Positions 1,193-11,425 of a stretch of 32,065 nucleotides of DNA are shown one piece after another (within the stretch, counting starts at the first letter, position 1; every line of letters begins with the position of its first letter). The DNA is from an uncultured bacterium (GTDB lineage Bacteria > CSSED10-310 > CAZUFC01): positions 1 through 32,065 of the forward strand of contig CAZUFC010000097.1 of assembly GCA_964619725.1 (NCBI GenBank). The letters are read 5' to 3'. Below the pieces are notes generated by a model, which did not search any database, was not told where the DNA came from, and was given only the letters and a program-made list of their open reading frames with translations. The translations under genes and the position numbers were made by a program.

Positions 1193-4100
1193 TCAGTTTC
1201 TTTTTCTGTTCAAGAGCAGTATACCTCCGAGGATTACCATGACTGCGATAATTCCTGAATTAGTCAAAGCGGGAACGGGGGCTGGAGTAGGAGAGAAAGC
1301 AGGCGTTCGGGTTATATCCGGAGTAGCGGTGAAGGGAGAAGTCGGTTCGACAGTGGGGGCTTCAGTGGGTTCGCCGGTAGGGGCGGTTGTAGGTTCAATT
1401 GTGGGAGCTTGAGTGGGTATTTCGGTTGGAATTGAAGTCGGTTCGGCTGTTGGAGTCAGAGTTGGCGGCAGTGTGGGTCCTTCTGTAGGGGTAAGAGTCG
1501 AAGTTGGGGAGGCAGTCGAAGTCGGGGTAAGGGTAGGAGTATTGGTCGGCGGCGGCGTCGGCGTCAGGGTCGGTGTATCGGTAGGGGTGAACGTAGGCGT
1601 ATGCGTAGGGGTTAATGTCGGACCGAATGTAGGGGAGTCGGTGGGATAAGGCGAAGGCGTGACGGGAGCCGAGCCGCACATTTCCATGTTGTCGATAATG
1701 ACAGAAGCATTGCCGTCCCAATTGTCGGGAATATCGTACATTCTGATTTGGATGTTGCATTGAACGGCGCCTGACGGAGCCGTTTGATCGAGTCTTTCGA
1801 ACACCTGCCATTCATCCGATTCCGTAGAATACCCGCCGTCGACAATGCCGATCATAAAACCGAGGCTGTCTTCCCATCGAATCCAGAGCCGTATTCGTCC
1901 TGCATCGTCATTATCGTAGAAGCGCAGTCTGAAATCGTAGGCTTCGCCGGCGTATACGGGGACTATCTGATAGAGCTCCTGAGTAAGGGGATTGGTCCAG
2001 GTCAGATTACAGGAAGAGTCTCCATAATAGACGTTATCTGTTTCCTGTGAGGCGGAGAAGCCGGTTATCTGGCTGAGCGCCCATCCATCCGGGGGTCCGT
2101 CAGAGCCGTTTTCAAACCATCTTTCAAAACCGGGATTGACGGGAAGATTATCGTAACACATTCCGGGGATCATGGTAGCGGTAGGAGCCAGAGTTGGAAC
2201 TTCAGTGGGAGTGGGCGGACCGGGGGTTTCAGTGAAGAAAGGCGTCGGCGTGAGTCCTGCGAGGCCGCAAGCTTCAATGTTGTCGATAGTAACGGATGCG
2301 TTTCCGTCCCAGAGTTCCGGATCGTCGTACATTCTGATTTGCAGATTGCAGAAAACGGCGCCGGCTGGAGCTGTTTCGTCGAGGGCTTCCAGGTATTGCC
2401 AGGCGAAGGCATCCGTAGAATATCCTCCGTCAGAGGAATCGATGAATCCGCCCTGGCTGTCTTCCCAACGAATCCAGAGCCGTATTCTGCCGGCTGGATC
2501 GTCGTCGTAGTACCGAAGTCTGAAATCATACGTTTCACCGGCTGTGACGACGAACTTCTGATAGAGTTCCTGGGTGACCGTGCTGCTCCAGTTAAGCTTG
2601 CATGAGTATGCTCCGTCAAAGACGAAGAAGATGTCCCGGGAAGCGGAGTATCCCAGGTACTGGCTGAGTTTCCAGCCGTCCGGAGGTCCATAGGGGCCGT
2701 TTTCATCCCAATCTTCGAAACCTGGATTCACGGGGAGATTATCGGCGCACATAGTGGGAATCGGCGTTCCAGTAGAGGTATTTGTGGGTGTTGTCGTAGG
2801 CGAATTGGTTGATGTGGGTGAAGGTGAGCGAGTAGGAGTGTAGGTTACCGTCGGCGTTGGGGTAAGCGTAGGGGTATTTGTTGGAGAAAAAGTCGGAGAT
2901 TGAGTAACGGTAGGAGTGAGCGTCGGTGTCGGCGAAGGCGTGGCCGTGCCGCAATAGTAATTGAACATACCCGTTTCAAGCGCCCAGCCGATCAGGTCGT
3001 CCGTCGGGTTGGAGAAGTGCAGTTCGCATTGATCGCCGTTTTGACAGGTTGGACATACAACCTTGAAAGTCAAGGTAACGAGGCTGCCGTTATTTCCGGC
3101 CGGGATATTTTCGGGATAGGAGAAACCGGCCAGAACGATCTGCCCAACGGTCGGTTCGTTGCATCCGAACATCTGCCATCCCGGATCAAGCGTTCCTTCT
3201 GAGCAAGAGACGTATTGCAGCATGTCCGTGCAATAGTTGAGGGTTATCCCGAACGAGTCCACAGGAGTATCCTGGTTGTCTATCATCACGGTCGTTTCTA
3301 CCATGCTTCCGTGGCATTCCGTGAAATCTTCCAGCCAGATCACATCATTCGTCACAGGAGTAGGAACCGGCGTGGGTTCACAGTAATAAGCGAAGGCGCC
3401 GGATTGATTGGGCCATCCCGTGAAGTCTCCTGAGAGGTTGGTGAAGTTGAGAACGCATTCATCATCGTTTTCGCAGGCAGGACAAGCAACCATGAACGTC
3501 AAAGTAACAATGCTGCCTGTGTTTCCGGCAGGAATTGTATTCGGGTAGGCGAATGCTGCGACCCTTATTTCGCCTGATTCAGGTTCGTAACAGTCGAACA
3601 TTTCCCATCCCGGATCGAGTGTTCCCTCGGAGCAAGAGACGTATTGCAGCATGTCCGTGCAATACTCCATGTAGAACCCGAAAGAATCGACCGCCGTATC
3701 CCCGTTTGAGATCATGACGTCCACGTTGACGGTTTGCCCTGTGCAGCCGGAAAAGTCTTCGAGCCATACAAGGTCAGCCGGCGTAGGAGAAGGCGTTGGC
3801 GTAGGAGGGCAGGAATAGGTGAACAGTCCTGTTTGAACGTCCCATCCGTTGAGGTCGTCTGTGAGATTGTAGAGGAAGAGAGTGTTCTGATCGCCGTTGG
3901 AGCAGATATCGCATTTGACCAGGAATGTAAGTTTGACGAGCGTCCCGTTACTGCCGGCCGGGATGGAGCCCGGATAAGCGAATCCTGCGGCCCTGACTTC
4001 CCCGGGTGCTGGGGCATTGCAATCGAACATCTGCCAATCGGGGTCCAGATCGCCCGATTCACAGCCGACATATTCGATCATGTCCGGTCTGTATCCGAGG

Positions 4101-4756
4101 TAGAACCCGAAGGAATCCACCGGGGTTTCCGGATTTGAGATCATGACGTCGACCTGAATCGTATCGCCGGTGCAGCCGGAAGAGTCTCCGATCCAGATGG
4201 AATCCGCGGCGGCAGGAGTAGGAACCGGCGTCGGTGACGGGCACGAATAAGTGAATGTCCCGCTCTGCGGATTCCAGCCTTCAAGATCACCCGAAAGCTG
4301 GGAAAATTCAAGCAGGCATGTATCGCCGTTATTACAGGATTGGCATACAACCTGAAACGTCAGCTTCACAAGGCTGCCTGAGCTTCCGGCGGGAACGCCG
4401 CCGGGTACGATGAAACCGGCGGCTCTGATTTCTCCGGCGACCGAATCATTGCAGCCGAACATGGTCCAGCCGGGATCGAGATCGCCGGGAGCGCAACCGA
4501 CAAATGCGAGCTTGTCGGCGCAATAGCTTATATAGAATCCGAACGCATCAACGGGCGTATCCGGGTTGGAAATCATGACATCGACTTCAATCGTTTCGCC
4601 GCCGCATCCGGCGAAATCTTCCAGCCAAATGTCATTGCCCCGGGATAAGCCGGCGCCGAACGCGTTCACGGCTGTCACACCTCCAGTAAATGCTGCTGCA
4701 AATGCTGCACAGCCGATCAAAATACTGACCAGAAGGCCTTGTTTTTTCATTTTCAA
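1193..4756 (-). CDS. Scaffoldin-like surface protein: signal peptide, 4 cohesin-like domains, 2 CBM4/9-like (galactose-binding fold) domains, Pro/Thr linkers, IPTL-CTERM-like anchor
   Basis: Four ~131-aa repeats (4241-4633, 3809-4204, 3380-3775, 2951-3346) with the cohesin pattern G.T..VDVMI.N...VD.FG....Y....L..V.C..G.L.....F.....G.I......G.LV.LTF.V. Two NPGFE...IDN.E domains (2267-2749, 1676-2158). C-terminus VPALTNSG + TM helix + RKR. AAGGAG SD. Confidence 0.85.
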   Translation of the reverse strand: MKMKKQGLLVSILIGCAAFAAAFTGGVTAVNAFGAGLSRGNDIWLEDFAGCGGETIEVDVMISNPDTPVDAFGFYISYCADKLAFVGCAPGDLDPGWTMFGCNDSVAGEIRAAGFIVPGGVPAGSSGSLVKLTFQVVCQSCNNGDTCLLEFSQLSGDLEGWNPQSGTFTYSCPSPTPVPTPAAADSIWIGDSSGCTGDTIQVDVMISNPETPVDSFGFYLGYRPDMIEYVGCESGDLDPDWQMFDCNAPAPGEVRAAGFAYPGSIPAGSNGTLVKLTFLVKCDICSNGDQNTLFLYNLTDDLNGWDVQTGLFTYSCPPTPTPSPTPADLVWLEDFSGCTGQTVNVDVMISNGDTAVDSFGFYMEYCTDMLQYVSCSEGTLDPGWEMFDCYEPESGEIRVAAFAYPNTIPAGNTGSIVTLTFMVACPACENDDECVLNFTNLSGDFTGWPNQSGAFAYYCEPTPVPTPVTNDVIWLEDFTECHGSMVETTVMIDNQDTPVDSFGITLNYCTDMLQYVSCSEGTLDPGWQMFGCNEPTVGQIVLAGFSYPENIPAGNNGSLVTLTFKVVCPTCQNGDQCELHFSNPTDDLIGWALETGMFNYYCGTATPSPTPTLTPTVTQSPTFSPTNTPTLTPTPTVTYTPTRSPSPTSTNSPTTTPTNTSTGTPIPTMCADNLPVNPGFEDWDENGPYGPPDGWKLSQYLGYSASRDIFFVFDGAYSCKLNWSSTVTQELYQKFVVTAGETYDFRLRYYDDDPAGRIRLWIRWEDSQGGFIDSSDGGYSTDAFAWQYLEALDETAPAGAVFCNLQIRMYDDPELWDGNASVTIDNIEACGLAGLTPTPFFTETPGPPTPTEVPTLAPTATMIPGMCYDNLPVNPGFERWFENGSDGPPDGWALSQITGFSASQETDNVYYGDSSCNLTWTNPLTQELYQIVPVYAGEAYDFRLRFYDNDDAGRIRLWIRWEDSLGFMIGIVDGGYSTESDEWQVFERLDQTAPSGAVQCNIQIRMYDIPDNWDGNASVIIDNMEMCGSAPVTPSPYPTDSPTFGPTLTPTHTPTFTPTDTPTLTPTPPPTNTPTLTPTSTASPTSTLTPTEGPTLPPTLTPTAEPTSIPTEIPTQAPTIEPTTAPTGEPTEAPTVEPTSPFTATPDITRTPAFSPTPAPVPALTNSGIIAVMVILGGILLLNRKRN

Positions 4757-4786: not shown

Positions 4787-7700
4787 TCAATACAGCTGAT
4801 CGTCTTGCAGTTCATCTACCGGCGTCCATAGCGTCTTGCCTTCCAGATAGTTATGAGTTTCTGCGGGCATCAGTTCACAGAATGTAAATGTCCCGCTGAG
4901 ACCGTTCCAATCCCCGATATCATCGGTAAGATGGGAGAATCCAATGTCGCTCCGTTCGCCGATCCGGCAGCCGTCGCAGGTTACTTTGAACGTAAGAACA
5001 GCCAGAATCTCATTGTTTTCCGCAGGGATGCCCTCTTCAGGATCAGTGAATCCGGCTATTCTGATTTCACCGGCGTTCGGTTCGTTGGCTCCGAACATCA
5101 GCCAGTCGACATCAGGATTACCCTGACGGCATTCAACGAATTCAAGCATGTCGGTTGAGTAATCCAGGGTGACCCCGAATGAATCTAATTGAGCGTCAGG
5201 ATTGGAAATTCTAACTGCAATTTCGACGATCTCGTTTTCACAGCCGGAGGCGTCGTCGATCCATATCATATCATCTTGAGCGAGGGCTTTCAGTAAGGCG
5301 TCAGTTGATTGTGAAATAGGTCCGATCGTTTTCACGTTTTCATTCAATTCATTCTGCGGTGCGGCCGGGAGACCTTTGGACAGAGGGTCGGCGCATTCGC
5401 AATCCATTCCCAGGTAATACATGAACATGCATTGCGCATCGGCTATGGTTACATTGGCGTCGCCGTTACAGTTCGCCGAGCATTCTTCTTCGAATGTAGG
5501 CGTAAAGTATCCCAGAACAATCATGAAGGTGAGCTGGGCGTCGGTGACGGTTATTTGGCCGTCATTATCCACGTCGCCGTCGTTCAAACAGATAAATGTC
5601 GGAGTCACTGTAGGTTCGGCTGTGGGAACCATGGTAGGAATGGGCGTAGTTGTTGCAGAGGGGACAGGCGTAGGCGTGAAATCGTCATTCGTCCAGTTGC
5701 CGTAATCAACGTCATCACTGACCCGTTCAGCGCCTATGTTGTTGTTTCCGTCGTCCATGCAATCATCGACTCCGTACTCGACATCCAGCGGCCCGCCGTA
5801 CATTCCCCAGTAATTGTATTGCGCATTGATGCACGTGGTGGGGTCAGCATTGTATACGGCATAGTTTATGTGACTCGAGAATGAATTGTAATCCATGGCT
5901 GATCCGCCGATGACAGGAAGAGCGGCTGATTCGACGTAAATGCCGTAACCGGCTGAACCGTCGTTATTGGAGTGCAATTCGCAGTTTTTGAATACTGGCG
6001 TTGAATTAGCTCCGGTAACGAAAGCGCCGTATCCGTAATTATCGCGGATTTTCGCGGCATTTACAATTGTGCTTGGAATTCCGCCGACGGCTTCTGAGAC
6101 GTAGATACCGTACTGACTGTTATTTTCTATCTGACCTCCCGTAATTTGCACGGTGCCCGGAGCCGCGTATACGCCGGAGGATGTGTTGTGATGGACGCGG
6201 CAATTGATGAGGGTTGGATTAGCGCTGTTCGTATGGGCTCTGACTCCGTTGCCGGCTCCGAATCCTATCTCACAATCCTGCAAAACCGGTGAACTCTCAT
6301 AACAAAGGACATTTTCGTAAGGATCGCCGGCTCCGCCGTACTCGATGACGCAGTGTTTCAAAGAGGTCACTGCATCGTCGCAGTAATTGGAGAAGTAGAT
6401 GCCCCTCCAATGTCCCGGACTGGGACTGGAAGAATGTGAGGTGAAAACGATGGGATTCGATGGTGATCCTTCAGCTACCAGTGCGCCGGGCAACAGATTA
6501 TTCGAATCATGACCGATAAACATTCCAATTCCGTTGAACAGCAGTTCGCATCCGGGTTCGAGAGTTAAAGTGGTGAGATGATCCGCTCCTGCTTGTCCCC
6601 TGACGTAGACGTCGCCGCTGTGCACATAATACGGTATTCCGTGATCTTCCCAGTAGCTGTCCAGTGAAATGGTGTCGCCGAGAACGTAAAAACGCTGGGT
6701 ATAATTGTACAGGAAGGAGCAGTCCGTAACGCCGCGCACCTTGGAAGCATACATCCTTATGGGGTATGTATAATTAAACAAGAAAGTGCAGCCGTCTACG
6801 AATGCTGAATCCTCCGACCCGTTGCAGTAGAGTCCTGTGCTTCCGTTTTCTTCTATGGTTGAATCCGAGATGTGGATCGTCGCTGTATTGTTGATATAAA
6901 TGCCATAGGTTGAGTTATGCCGGATGGTTGAATCGGATATTTGCATGTCGCTGCCGGTATCGCAATAAATACCATGGCTGCTGGAGTTTCTGATCTCACA
7001 GTATTCGACGACGGGATTTGAATTCTGATAGGAGTAAATGCCCGTTCCGCCGGCATACTCGATCAGACAATGTCTGAGCGTAGGAGATGCATCGATGCAA
7101 TGTACAGCCTCCCAGTTGGAGTAACCGCCGGACATTATTTTACAATGTTCCATCAGGCACAACGAGTCTTCTGAATATTTCTGGAAGATTATGCCGTCCC
7201 AAAAGCCGTGGCTGGGATTCTCCTGTCTTCCAGTGAAAAGGATCGGCTCAGAAGCCGTTCCGACGGCCATTAACCCGCCTGGTTCCGTAACCGTGTCGTC
7301 GTCGCCGATGTATAATCCATCCGTGGACTCAAAATGCAGTTCAGCGCCTTCCTCGATATATAAAGTCGTAACGCTGTCGGCGCCGTCCTGCCCTTTCACG
7401 TACACGTCTCCTGTTATCCAGTAGGGTTCCTTGTCGTGGTTTTCCCAATAGCTGTCCTGGGTGATCGTATCAGGCACTACGTGAAACGCTTCATAATTGT
7501 TACCCTCGAAGGTACAATTGCTGAAGTATCCCATCTGTCGGGCATAAGCGTAAACGGGATAGCCGTTATTGTAAGAGAAGTGACAATTATTAACGGAGAA
7601 GACGTGGGCTGGACTGTCGCTGTAAAATCCGTAGGTGTAATTGCCGGAAATGGTCGTGTTGTCCAGATGGATTCGCGCATTGCTGCTCAAGTAGACGCCG

Positions 7701-10700: not shown

Positions 10701-11425
10701 CCGTCGACTGTGTAGATTCCGTATCCGCCGTTACTGGAAAAATTCCCGTCGCTGATATCGAGAGAACCAGTTGTAGCCCCGTATACGCCATGATCCCCAT
10801 TATTCTGTGAAGAAGAATCCGTTACGACAAGCATCGAGGAACCTTCCGCAGCGATTCCGTACGTCCCGTTATCAGAAAAATCCGTGAACGAAAACGACGG
10901 TGAACTGCCCGCTACCGCCCTAACTCCGGATGTAATGCTGTATTGGATGTTGCAATGGCTGAAGGATGCTTCCGAATCTTCCAGATACACCATACCGCTG
11001 TTGGCTCCGCCTCCGTAGGAAATGTCCGTATACGTCAGCATACTGTCGTCGGAATTGTCCCTGAAATACAAGGTTTGCCAGTCGCCCGCCGCCGGCGTTG
11101 TCTGGGCTGAAGTGAAAATTACGGGGGTTCCCGATGTTCCCTGGGACAATAAACATCCGTATTCCCCGCTTGCACCGCCGACATAAAAGTTCATGTCCTG
11201 GTTGAATAAAACCTGAACGCCTGCCTCGATCTCTAATGTAGCTCCGTCCGTTATCGTTATGTCGCCCGTTACTATATAAACTCCGTCAGGCGACGGGTCG
11301 CTCGTTCCCCACGTCGTGTCCGAGGTTATAGCGCCCGAAACGTTTATTGATCCATAAACGGACGAACTGCACGCGAGCATCAGAAAAACGATTACTGTTA
11401 ATTGATACTTAATTGAATTCGACAA
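4787..11425 (-). CDS. Giant secreted right-handed parallel beta-helix repeat protein with C-terminal dockerin and cohesin domains
   Basis: TTG start with a GGAGGAGG SD and a signal peptide. Seven large modules (..PY.I.GD..V.G..G.D.VTT.TI.PG...W.GI.F) with many N..YGIY beta-helix coils. After a PT linker come a dockerin (DGDVDNDGQITVTDAQ / ANCNGDANVTIADAQ, ~5385-5590) and a cohesin (~4877-5275) homologous to those of the downstream gene. Confidence 0.85.
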   Translation of the reverse strand: MSNSIKYQLTVIVFLMLACSSSVYGSINVSGAITSDTTWGTSDPSPDGVYIVTGDITITDGATLEIEAGVQVLFNQDMNFYVGGASGEYGCLLSQGTSGTPVIFTSAQTTPAAGDWQTLYFRDNSDDSMLTYTDISYGGGANSGMVYLEDSEASFSHCNIQYSITSGVRAVAGSSPSFSFTDFSDNGTYGIAAEGSSMLVVTDSSSQNNGDHGVYGATTGSLDISDGNFSSNGGYGIYTVDGTCLISLTDSLFTNNTGTPLRLGANRIGFTAGNIFSGNGNSFIECAGATVALDGIWHDQGIPYRILGDVSIMGQAGPDAVTTVTIQPGAEFEFDSAVGLTVGHDTDSNLPGELIADGSGGDRIFFTGIDAMGTWEGIQFLNYADDDSLMNNCVVEYSSSYGIHSNSCSPTFIGCDITDSADHGLYVTGGPAEPTVSDCLIDSNGGYGIYCNDSSCGPFITNAVISNNAADYSIYTYGGKCQNITGSTVDKDVYVIAETLSIDAVWEDPGAAFYMTNGFTVQGQSGADNVTTLTLLAGTVVKLPDQARIIIGHDSNSNYPGALITSGTDMNPVVITSTSDVPVPGSWRDVYFAQYSDDALCELNHTVIEYGGQYVSSVKYYPVSCNSASPTLTNCTIRYAFDSGIYALDSAPVINGCTVIETGEYNIHFDNSYGSITDCTLSDSANGYHAIYLTVEGETVISGNLIADSGGYGIYCNTDAISPVITDNVFFNNLNGPIYIYAKHVKNIGLPPNTFMMPITPDVPNMIYVVGDTIGTDCIWINQHIPYRIAGDIYVKGTDGADFVTTITIEPGAELVFDHQQGLWIGSNNPGEPGGIYAVGTAGQRITFTGFENSHGYWDGIYFYDFSDDSICLMEYCDVMFGGYSSNENIYCYSASPTFRHCRILRGQGYNFYSYYWSNPILEDCEIAYGTSYGIYCSSNSSINGTGLDIHDNASHGIYASGTSFAVVSDSTFTRNYYGINANDTTDYAVISNCSFIDNQGYPIRMRARHIAGIGPCTFSGNRWEYITAGSDTLTEDTYWEKRSIPYCIEGWITVQGKDGPDEVTTWTLAPGVEFYINDNVGFYIGHNSDPLYPGALVAVGTAEQRITFTSRSDSPSQDDWAGIYYYRYSDDNACLMEYCDVEFGGYSSHEQIYCIDSAPTFRYCNIQYGGGYNIRSHDHANPTFEHCNILAATSYGIYCDNYGDINMTDCIVAGNRSYGIYTNNYGDAHISNSTIRDNTSYGVYLSSNARIHLDNTTISGNYTYGFYSDSPAHVFSVNNCHFSYNNGYPVYAYARQMGYFSNCTFEGNNYEAFHVVPDTITQDSYWENHDKEPYWITGDVYVKGQDGADSVTTLYIEEGAELHFESTDGLYIGDDDTVTEPGGLMAVGTASEPILFTGRQENPSHGFWDGIIFQKYSEDSLCLMEHCKIMSGGYSNWEAVHCIDASPTLRHCLIEYAGGTGIYSYQNSNPVVEYCEIRNSSSHGIYCDTGSDMQISDSTIRHNSTYGIYINNTATIHISDSTIEENGSTGLYCNGSEDSAFVDGCTFLFNYTYPIRMYASKVRGVTDCSFLYNYTQRFYVLGDTISLDSYWEDHGIPYYVHSGDVYVRGQAGADHLTTLTLEPGCELLFNGIGMFIGHDSNNLLPGALVAEGSPSNPIVFTSHSSSPSPGHWRGIYFSNYCDDAVTSLKHCVIEYGGAGDPYENVLCYESSPVLQDCEIGFGAGNGVRAHTNSANPTLINCRVHHNTSSGVYAAPGTVQITGGQIENNSQYGIYVSEAVGGIPSTIVNAAKIRDNYGYGAFVTGANSTPVFKNCELHSNNDGSAGYGIYVESAALPVIGGSAMDYNSFSSHINYAVYNADPTTCINAQYNYWGMYGGPLDVEYGVDDCMDDGNNNIGAERVSDDVDYGNWTNDDFTPTPVPSATTTPIPTMVPTAEPTVTPTFICLNDGDVDNDGQITVTDAQLTFMIVLGYFTPTFEEECSANCNGDANVTIADAQCMFMYYLGMDCECADPLSKGLPAAPQNELNENVKTIGPISQSTDALLKALAQDDMIWIDDASGCENEIVEIAVRISNPDAQLDSFGVTLDYSTDMLEFVECRQGNPDVDWLMFGANEPNAGEIRIAGFTDPEEGIPAENNEILAVLTFKVTCDGCRIGERSDIGFSHLTDDIGDWNGLSGTFTFCELMPAETHNYLEGKTLWTPVDELQDDQLY

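Follow-up and report, generated by a model that had tools for sequence, protein, structure and literature searches.

A recurrent dockerin-cohesin tandem at the end of giant beta-helix proteins in a CSSED10-310 bacterium: a possible latch for surface assembly

The window analyzed here is the whole of a 32,065-nt contig (CAZUFC010000097.1, labelled C97) of the genome bin G000 (GCA_964619725.1), and its subject is the C-terminal module of a giant protein, P0001, in which a dockerin is followed by a cohesin. P0001 is composed of a probable signal peptide, about five right-handed beta-helix units, a Pro/Thr-rich (PT) linker, the dockerin, a spacer, and the C-terminal or T cohesin. The adjoining gene encodes P0002, a scaffoldin-like protein with a signal peptide, four cohesins, PT linkers, two 163-aa repeats, and a C-terminal anchor (Table 1). 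The original prediction, made from the letters of the window, had read the order PT linker, dockerin, spacer, and cohesin in one polypeptide, at the C-terminus of a 2212-aa protein, and both Pfam and the translation confirm it; the spacer is present as well, but is 38 aa long rather than about 35 aa. Both proteins are read as parts of a non-cellulosomal system for surface assembly, which has expanded in this lineage; the named relatives of the lineage are candidate division CSSED10-310. The observed order and homology are far beyond chance, and the dockerin-cohesin order recurs in the genome. On the basis of structure prediction, the cohesin clade, and linker lengths, the reading tentatively favored here, with somewhat less than even confidence, is that the tandem is a self-complementary pair, which would rest closed in cis and be opened by handover to the scaffoldin cohesins.

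Table 1. Features of the P0001-P0002 locus, with positions in the window.
Feature	Position	Strand	Length	Basis or remark
P0001 gene	4787..11425	-	2212 aa	Open reading frame list and translation
Probable signal peptide	11351..11425	-	25 aa	K-containing N-region, hydrophobic core, SSSVYG; read from sequence
PT linker	5597..5674	-	26 aa	Translation
Cys-rich dockerin	5384..5590	-	69 aa	Pfam Dockerin_1; own hidden Markov model (HMM), E 1.6e-31
Spacer	5270..5383	-	38 aa	Family-variable; translation and AlphaFold2
T cohesin	4874..5269	-	132 aa	Pfam, BLASTP, Foldseek
C-terminal tail after cohesin	4790..4873	-	28 aa	No membrane anchor
P0002 gene	1193..4756	-	1187 aa	30 nt downstream of P0001, same strand
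Scaffoldin cohesin 1	4241..4630	-		Own HMM, E 1e-50
Scaffoldin cohesin 2	3809..4198	-		Own HMM, E 3e-53; best Pfam stretch
Scaffoldin cohesin 3	3380..3769	-		Own HMM, E 4e-52
Scaffoldin cohesin 4	2951..3343	-		Own HMM, E 5e-53; 47% identical to T cohesin
Two repeated domains	2264-2752 and 1673-2161 (span 1673..2752)	-	163 aa each	Repeat found by motif
Anchor or sorting-signal-like tail	1196..1279	-		PVPA motif, hydrophobic stretch, then RKRN

Dockerins consist of two repeats of about 22 residues, each with a 12-residue Ca-binding loop that carries Asp or Asn at positions 1, 3, 5, and 12 and is followed by a helix. The dockerin of P0001 has two F-hand-like repeats, DVDNDGQITVTD and NCNGDANVTIAD, which are closely alike (DAQ..FM..LG in each) and are each followed by a helix in the sequence; together with the helices predicted by AlphaFold2, they display the Ca-loop-plus-helix repeat of type I dockerins (PF00404). 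Pfam Dockerin_1 (PF00404) recognizes an isolated 117-aa piece in two stretches (23.4 bits vs. a cut-off of 22.9), and scores below the cut-off in longer contexts (14.9-18.3 bits in longer pieces and 17.7 bits in the genome scan), which marks the domain as a divergent Dockerin_1 member. Six of its cysteines (C7, C43, C47, C60, C70, and C72 in tandem numbering) are conserved in the paralogues of the genome. The conserved cysteines flank and cross the dockerin, and fewer of them are kept in the relatives of family f3. A "clasp" is known from the ScaA dockerin, and a disulfide linking both ends of the P0001 dockerin would be a covalent version of it.

The T cohesin is recognized by Pfam Cohesin (PF00963) on C-terminal pieces of P0001 (27.9-29.3 bits vs. 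a cut-off of 24.1), and the match is missed when the entire 2212-aa protein is scanned at E 0.1. Its proposed homology to the scaffoldin cohesins is borne out by BLASTP, in which the P0001 tail gives four cohesin alignments with P0002, at 47%, 40%, 46%, and 41% identity (E 2e-36 to 5e-32). With the window's model, Foldseek matches 6kgf_A (E 4.3e-11, TMt 0.72) and also 2xdh, 2vn6_A, and 1ohz_A, and with a relative's model, VIA-align gives Z 12.0-13.4 for type I cohesins and about 10 for type II; the searched model was the whole tandem, and the fold-search lists are occupied by the cohesin (model residues 83-218 spanned). Ahead of the tail, Pfam finds in P0001 itself only Beta_helix (344.4 bits in 9 stretches) and NosD (167.1 bits) domains. 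A PDB sequence search with P0001 gave 0 matches, a scan of NCBIfam gave sub-threshold matches only, and a word-indexed protein search returned 3 matches among 1311 candidates (length band 1216-3871 aa). At the other end of the protein, the signal peptide is probable from its sequence, provided that the TTG start is used (gene starts are inferred). A database copy of the protein, P0003 (2197 aa), begins 15 aa downstream of this TTG and is without 11381-11425, and so without the signal peptide; its gene start was probably mis-called.

P0002 agrees with the four anchor sites that had been postulated, since both Pfam Cohesin (94.4 bits in 4 stretches) and a purpose-built HMM find four cohesins in it. 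A PDB sequence search with P0002 gave weak cohesin matches only (6kgc_A, E 0.042). On the basis of homology, adjacency, and the clade result given below, P0001 most likely docks on P0002. Each of the 163-aa repeats of P0002 opens with MC[AY]DNLPVNPGFE and closes with IDN.E.CG, and no family exceeds its threshold there (PA14 16.3 bits, LtfC 15.6 bits, NTTRR-F1 27.1 vs. 70); they are possibly ligand-binding beta-sandwiches, and a candidate ligand-binding part of the assembly. The tail of P0002 belongs to a common type, [IV]P[AS] followed by about 20 hydrophobic residues and a cluster of Lys/Arg, which is found in most multi-cohesin neighbors and in five tandem proteins (besides the window, on C2, C5, C7, C8, C15, C19, C20, C34, C64, C131, and C182; C-numbers denote contigs of G000). 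In appearance, this tail is closer to a sorting signal of the PEP-CTERM type than to a simple anchor. The genome holds one frame of the Exosortase_EpsH family (G000:C134:13003-13455, 35.5 bits), and a link between this gene and the anchor-like tails is a guess.

Lineage HMMs based on the dockerin motif and on the five cohesins of the window detect 56 cohesin domains in 34 frames, and 25 dockerins, in G000. A cohesin follows in the same frame, 26-62 aa after the dockerin, in 20 of the 25 dockerin open reading frames. The dockerin on C265 is cut by the contig end where its cohesin starts, and that on C12 is interrupted by a stop; the small tandem in question (G000:C12:40015-40775, minus strand) lies in three frames, split by a TAG and a shift, which points to decay of this copy or to a sequencing error. 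Only three dockerins of the P0001 type are without a cohesin (C101, C116, and C131). The tandem-bearing proteins range from 578 to 12,092 aa. The longest is encoded by a single frame (G000:C34:1691-37966, plus strand), which ends in a dockerin-cohesin tandem and a membrane anchor and has Laminin_G_3, TSP_3, and FG-GAP_3 in its first 5000 aa. Beta_helix is present in 10 of the 15 other tandem giants, and the rest have FG-GAP, CARDB, CarboxypepD_reg, Laminin_G_3, or TSP_3; none of the 15 has a glycoside hydrolase above cut-off (GH43 28.4 vs. 32.2).

A cellulosome proper was rejected, as there is no enzyme cargo. A scaffoldin with several cohesins is present (P0002, four), but the dockerins are not borne by carbohydrate-active enzymes. 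Likewise, in place of SLH or sortase anchoring and a scaffoldin carbohydrate-binding module (CBM), P0002 ends in a hydrophobic stretch and RKRN, and the Pfam scan lists no SLH or CBM family in it.

By tree and sequence comparison, the tandems of G000 fall into three groups. Group 1 (C97, C20, C64, and C276/7) combines an S-like cohesin with the PT linker. Group 2 (C7, C18, C19, C25, C34, and C182) is without the PT linker; its proteins on C7, C19, and C34, and both of those on C182, have their own C-terminal membrane anchor, and no family-type scaffoldin lies on these four contigs, with the qualification that C182 bears two tandem proteins. In group 3 (C2, C8, C15, C86, C122, and C154), the C-terminal cohesins are Cys-free and have diverged strongly. 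The giant genes of groups 1 and 3 all adjoin a gene whose product has 1-5 cohesins and ends in an anchor-like tail. The genome also holds a second cohesin-dockerin set, missed by the lineage HMMs. Its dockerins are Pfam-typical (up to 36 bits) and lie near the N-termini of proteins of about 3000 aa, on C9, C45, C206, C102, and C323; its cohesins, found as separate Pfam matches, are on C106, C59, C12:72037-74577, and C19:50901-56393.

The genome bin comprises 9.17 Mb in 344 contigs, with 90.9% completeness and 6.5% contamination, and may mix strains. The tandem genes of C276 and C277 are identical, and those of C86 and C122 are near-identical in the tree. These pairs may be strain variants or redundant assembly, in which case the distinct dockerin loci number about 23 and the paralogue counts are slightly inflated. 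Sequencing runs that match the window are four DNA runs of one study, a microbial mat metagenome, and a look-up of sequencing runs found no RNA data for it. The region is spanned by one 11,637-nt contig, possibly the source of the window, and pieces that match the window exactly come from two other runs; none of these bridges 5228-5431, and hence the spacer is without an independent bridge. Assembly artefact as the source of the tandem was ruled out by the same order in 20 paralogues and in nine other genomes.

Beyond G000, the closest named records are metagenome-assembled genomes (MAGs) of candidate division CSSED10-310 and one unclassified MAG (5 of 591 pattern matches confirmed, in a related-locus search that used a 4-row alignment). 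The tandem profile matches 10 of the 14 genomes of the phylum, in 4 of its 7 families. Of 33 loci from nine other genomes, 31 keep dockerin and cohesin in a single frame, 21-55 aa apart, and the proteins of these loci usually end at most 10 aa after the cohesin. The relative G003 (4.6 Mb; G-numbers other than G000 are genomes of relatives) has 85 matches, which by profile range are 13 tandems, 15 cohesin-only, and 57 dockerin-only proteins. Many of its dockerin-only matches lie at protein C-termini, and G005, G007, G001, and G009 look similar. Such counts point to a classical system of many dockerins and few scaffoldins in the phylum, with tandems as a minority; the window's genome is unusual in that the tandem is the rule. 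Farther afield, a 50-row tandem profile run against 1.84 billion cluster representatives gave 10,157 protein matches at E<=1e-3, of which 375 reach E<=1e-30. Among the best 150 representatives, a ranking that favors tandems by construction, 97 have a dockerin and then a cohesin, 81 end in that order, and mixed orders of cohesin (C) and dockerin (D) such as CDC, CDCC, and CCD are common. Clusters of proteins of about 200-280 aa with both Pfam families are found in the ESM Atlas, as leads only; their labels (Hydrogenedentota, Bacillota, and Planctomycetota) rest on few members.

In the cohesin tree, the T cohesins of group 1 cluster together (support 98/85), nested in a larger clade (100/99) that also holds the scaffoldin cohesins from C97, C20, C64, and C5. 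The scaffoldin cohesins in it do not separate by locus, and any of 12 sites may accordingly be open to a group-1 subunit. The T cohesin of the window keeps 40 of the 52 columns conserved in group-1 scaffoldin cohesins. That the specificities of dockerin and T cohesin match, a condition of the original prediction, thereby gains indirect support, from this clade, from the shared columns, and from the predicted packing of the T cohesin with its own dockerin (see below). Across all groups, T cohesins keep 0.35-0.71 of 32 scaffoldin-conserved columns, as compared with 0.91-0.92 for scaffoldin cohesins, and have longer branches in the tree. This weaker conservation and faster divergence fit a site of high effective concentration under looser constraint.

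Beside a polymer, the original prediction had named an adaptor and an intramolecular clasp as alternatives, and both are still tenable. As an adaptor, the T cohesin would differ in specificity from its own dockerin and recruit other dockerin proteins onto the docked rod. Such a role is better supported in the relatives, where dockerin-only proteins are many (57 of the 85 matches in G003), than in G000, where three P0001-type dockerin proteins without a cohesin face about 22 C-terminal cohesins. The mixed architectures among the best 150 representatives argue for it, as does the low identity (14-38%) between the two cohesins of cohesin-dockerin-cohesin proteins, which indicates different classes; in G000 itself, the second, Pfam-typical dockerin set also counts in its favor. 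Adaptor scaffoldins are established in A. cellulolyticus (PMC3413522, partial text), and a dockerin-X-cohesin "adaptor" has been proposed for the planctomycete "planctosome" (PMC6461901, partial text). The T cohesin of the window is, however, nested among the very cohesins expected as partners of its own dockerin, and AlphaFold2 pairs it with that dockerin; for P0001, an adaptor role is therefore considered unlikely.

Structure was predicted with the AlphaFold2 monomer ptm model, using no templates and a 50-row alignment of natural tandems. The 273-aa tail of the window is modeled with a mean predicted local distance difference test (pLDDT) of 87.1 and a predicted template modeling score (pTM) of 0.82. 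The dockerin helices lie at tandem residues 21-32, 39-45, and 55-65; pLDDT exceeds 90 for these three helices and for the cohesin strands, and is low only in the middle of the spacer (54-55) and in the last 25 residues (below 50 at 250-261 and 271-273, with a mean of 44-61 per 10-residue block). A short helix at 102-111 directly precedes the cohesin. Cohesin and preceding helix account for about 146 of the 273 residues, and by our own arithmetic a free-floating 69-aa dockerin would limit the pTM to about 0.55, so the model packs both domains together. The relative with the shortest linker (about 16 aa, from C.EP to the first strand) is modeled with still higher scores (pLDDT 92.4, pTM 0.89), its linker included (pLDDT 86-90). 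The AlphaFold2 ptm network was trained on single chains, and the packing is accordingly read as coming from the alignment and general physics, not from remembered complexes. At the level of a model, then, the prediction shows dockerin and T cohesin to be complementary and closure in cis to be sterically feasible. Whether the spacer permits cis binding had been put forward as a matter for modeling, and the models say that it does, even with a linker of about 16 aa.

Linker lengths, measured with the spacers corrected to full model ends, point the same way. Dockerin-to-cohesin spacers of <10 aa are absent from the 97 representatives, from the 20 tandems of G000, and from the 31 phylum loci, for which the median spacers are 27, 39, and 24 aa, respectively. 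Cohesin-to-dockerin junctions, by contrast, have a median of 0 aa (56 of 65 are <10 aa), and cohesin-to-cohesin spacers have a median of 19 aa among the representatives. A minimum length only where fold-back is needed fits closure in cis, and is the opposite of what selection for forced binding in trans would produce; these statistics suggest that the spacer is kept long enough for cis fold-back. At the zero-linker junctions (representatives P0006-P0154; G000:C86:30048-33221 and C122:13814-17083), the last Cys of the cohesin is the first Cys of the dockerin; the two modules form a rigid dyad, after which come the spacer and a second cohesin.

If closure in cis were permanent, the tandem would be a clasp, an inert globular end-domain, for example a stabilizing cap, with the neighboring scaffoldin attached through some other contact. 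The compact, high-confidence models, the ordered linker of the short-linker form, and the linker-length minimum all agree with this. It would leave the 34 scaffoldin-type cohesins of G000 (32 in scaffoldins and 2 N-terminal) almost without ligands, though, given that 56 cohesins face 25 dockerins and that the scaffoldin sites can be served only if the tandem dockerins come free. The pairing of each group-1 or group-3 giant gene with a multi-cohesin gene would be unexplained, and the dockerin-only proteins of the relatives show the module to be a connector in trans. A permanent clasp is thus judged very unlikely.

Binding in trans to the T cohesin of another subunit would, on the other hand, yield a head-to-tail polymer, in which every one of the four scaffoldin cohesins would start a chain of rods or, where paralogues anchor themselves, the chains would lie side by side on the membrane. 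The original prediction had pictured such growth as a bottle-brush. The T cohesin does belong to the scaffoldin-cohesin clade and is predicted to complement the dockerin, and 20-22 of the 25 dockerin proteins also offer a cohesin (three do not), which leaves few other clients for the T cohesins. The self-anchored proteins on C7, C19, and C34, moreover, have no family-type scaffoldin on their contigs, so that their dockerins are left with T cohesins only. There is also a precedent in Ruminococcus bromii Amy4, whose cohesin binds its own dockerin and for which multimerization was proposed (PMC4611034, partial text). A matching pair on a permissive linker should nevertheless close in cis, which general physical chemistry would favor through effective concentration; the predicted closure persists even at a linker of about 16 aa, which is ordered, and short dockerin-to-cohesin linkers, which would force binding in trans, do not occur. 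Head-to-tail growth would have to compete directly with such closure, and the open-ended polymer is therefore not the best-supported outcome and is itself rather improbable. The domain assignments and the homology on which the bottle-brush was built stand.

The favored mechanism, latching in cis with handover to the scaffoldin, would run as follows. A secreted beta-helix protein would bear a Ca-type dockerin and, 38 aa on, a cohesin of the scaffoldin-cohesin specificity clade, and its partner would be a co-transcribed, membrane-anchored scaffoldin with four cohesins. In the free subunit, the spacer would let the dockerin fold onto its own cohesin, giving a closed latch with both sites filled. 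At the cell surface, the dockerin would be passed to a scaffoldin cohesin, which would fix the rod at one of four sites, and the vacated T cohesin could then accept the dockerin of a next subunit, so that short chains are possible. Each added link would swap a cis bond for a like trans bond, a step that should be unfavorable unless the local concentration is very high; long bottle-brushes are thus not expected, and short chains at most. Within this scheme, the domain identities, the neighboring position of the two genes, the recurrent tandem, the clade of the cohesin, and the asymmetry of the linkers are observed; the packing of dockerin and cohesin in one chain is predicted by the model, and we infer calcium binding, specificity, handover, and the extracellular location.

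Closed, inert subunits could also be assembled by partner exchange, with the scaffoldin cohesin as an initiator that takes the dockerin of a first subunit, whose exposed cohesin then opens the next. By analogy with a hairpin chain reaction or donor-strand exchange, this would amount to stepwise, initiator-dependent growth of megadalton beta-helix rods on the surface of a diderm; it is regarded as improbable. Beside latch, polymer, adaptor, and clasp, what probability remains falls to loss of binding or to something unforeseen.

Several observations weigh against closure in cis with handover or limit the case for it. First, the genome holds FadL-type and heptosyltransferase genes, which indicates a diderm cell, and a 2212-aa protein would have to pass an outer membrane. 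Second, a single-chain AlphaFold2 model does not tell whether a contact drawn in cis is truly so or belongs in trans, and the packing was judged without coordinates, so that the canonical cohesin face cannot be claimed. Third, the linker minimum would equally suit a mere need for flexibility. Fourth, the T cohesin of the window evolves as slowly as the scaffoldin cohesins (branch 0.43), which equally suits a high-affinity site in trans. Fifth, covariation over 50 tandems gives, as its top inter-domain pairs, dockerin columns 21, 25, 55, 60, and 65 with cohesin columns 142 and 145 (z 5-6), but the same dockerin columns co-vary strongly among themselves, as a subfamily signature would. Sixth, in a mirror-tree comparison of 40 cohesin-dockerin-cohesin proteins, the downstream and the upstream cohesin are alike in their correlation with the dockerin (Spearman 0.469 vs. 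0.467; partial correlations 0.39 vs. 0.31). Lastly, the excess of dockerin-only proteins over tandems in G003 (57 vs. 13) indicates that dockerins there work without a cis cohesin, and its T cohesins could be adaptor sites.

Among known systems, the non-cellulosomal cohesin of Archaeoglobus fulgidus has a solved structure (2xdh) that is among the best fold matches of the T cohesin. The cohesin and dockerin proteins of A. fulgidus are archaeal and present in few copies, and we know of no multi-cohesin scaffoldin in that system. A close counterpart in architecture is Amy4, from the amylosome of R. bromii. The papers cited in this comparison were available as partial texts, and what is taken from them holds for those parts. 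The Amy4 cohesin binds the protein's own C-terminal dockerin in vitro, and other such pairs are cited in the same report (PMC4611034). Like P0001, Amy4 unites cargo and both modules in one polypeptide, and it also docks on an anchored scaffoldin, Sca2 (PMC4611034). In Amy4, however, the cohesin stands ahead of the C-terminal dockerin, whereas in P0001 the dockerin comes first; and Amy4 is a single case with GH13 cargo in a Gram-positive starch degrader, while in G000 the tandem is on 20-22 of the 25 dockerin proteins of a diderm, with beta-helix or adhesin-like cargo, and its pairing is predicted from models. Adaptor scaffoldins (A. cellulolyticus ScaB; R. flavefaciens ScaC and ScaH) resemble P0001 in that cohesin(s) and a dockerin in one chain extend an anchored scaffoldin by a layer (PMC3413522, PMC12484212). 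They differ in that their cohesins precede the dockerin and bind another dockerin type than their own, in that they have no large non-scaffold cargo, and in their SLH or sortase anchoring in Gram-positives. For P0001, the tree and the AlphaFold2 model lean against a specificity mismatch of this type.

Non-cellulosomal cohesin/dockerin systems have also been described from genomes of uncultured lineages: the planctosome of freshwater Planctomycetes, with its dockerin-HYR-cohesin adaptor (PMC6461901), and the adhesins of anaerobic methanotrophic (ANME) archaea (PMC9012536) and of their sulfate-reducing partners (PMC10553843). They share with G000 a diderm or archaeal, uncultured background, dockerin proteins together with multi-cohesin proteins, and adhesin-type cargo such as CARDB. 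In the parts available, these accounts are genome-annotation hypotheses; they describe no module in which dockerin, spacer, and cohesin follow directly on one another, do not claim self-matching, and make no connection to CSSED10-310. A literature search found no description of a fixed dockerin-spacer-cohesin module, though supplements of the ANME, sulfate-reducer, and planctomycete papers may list similar architectures. The same search found no intramolecular cohesin-dockerin pair or predicted closure, no linker asymmetry, and no Cys-rich dockerin; nor did it find an account of cohesins or dockerins in CSSED10-310, on which the available part of the genome announcement (PMC8248873) is silent. 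Proteins with both modules, and self-recognition, as in Amy4, are already known.

The cohesin-dockerin pair is the standard natural "plug and socket," and is widely used for designer enzyme complexes. The tandem would add to it a natural module that joins plug and socket in a fixed order, never by a short linker, and that is carried by almost all dockerin proteins of one genome and used across a barely studied phylum. It would also bring giant rods without enzymatic function, in a cell of the Gram-negative type, into the range of cohesin-dockerin systems. If closure in cis and its opening by the scaffoldin are true, they would represent a regulated or self-limiting principle of assembly not yet described for these modules, and would offer a ready-made switchable connector for protein engineering. 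For the organism, the surface of CSSED10-310 mat bacteria is probably made largely from such assemblies, and the tail of P0001 may serve as a latch for surface assembly rather than as a simple chain link.

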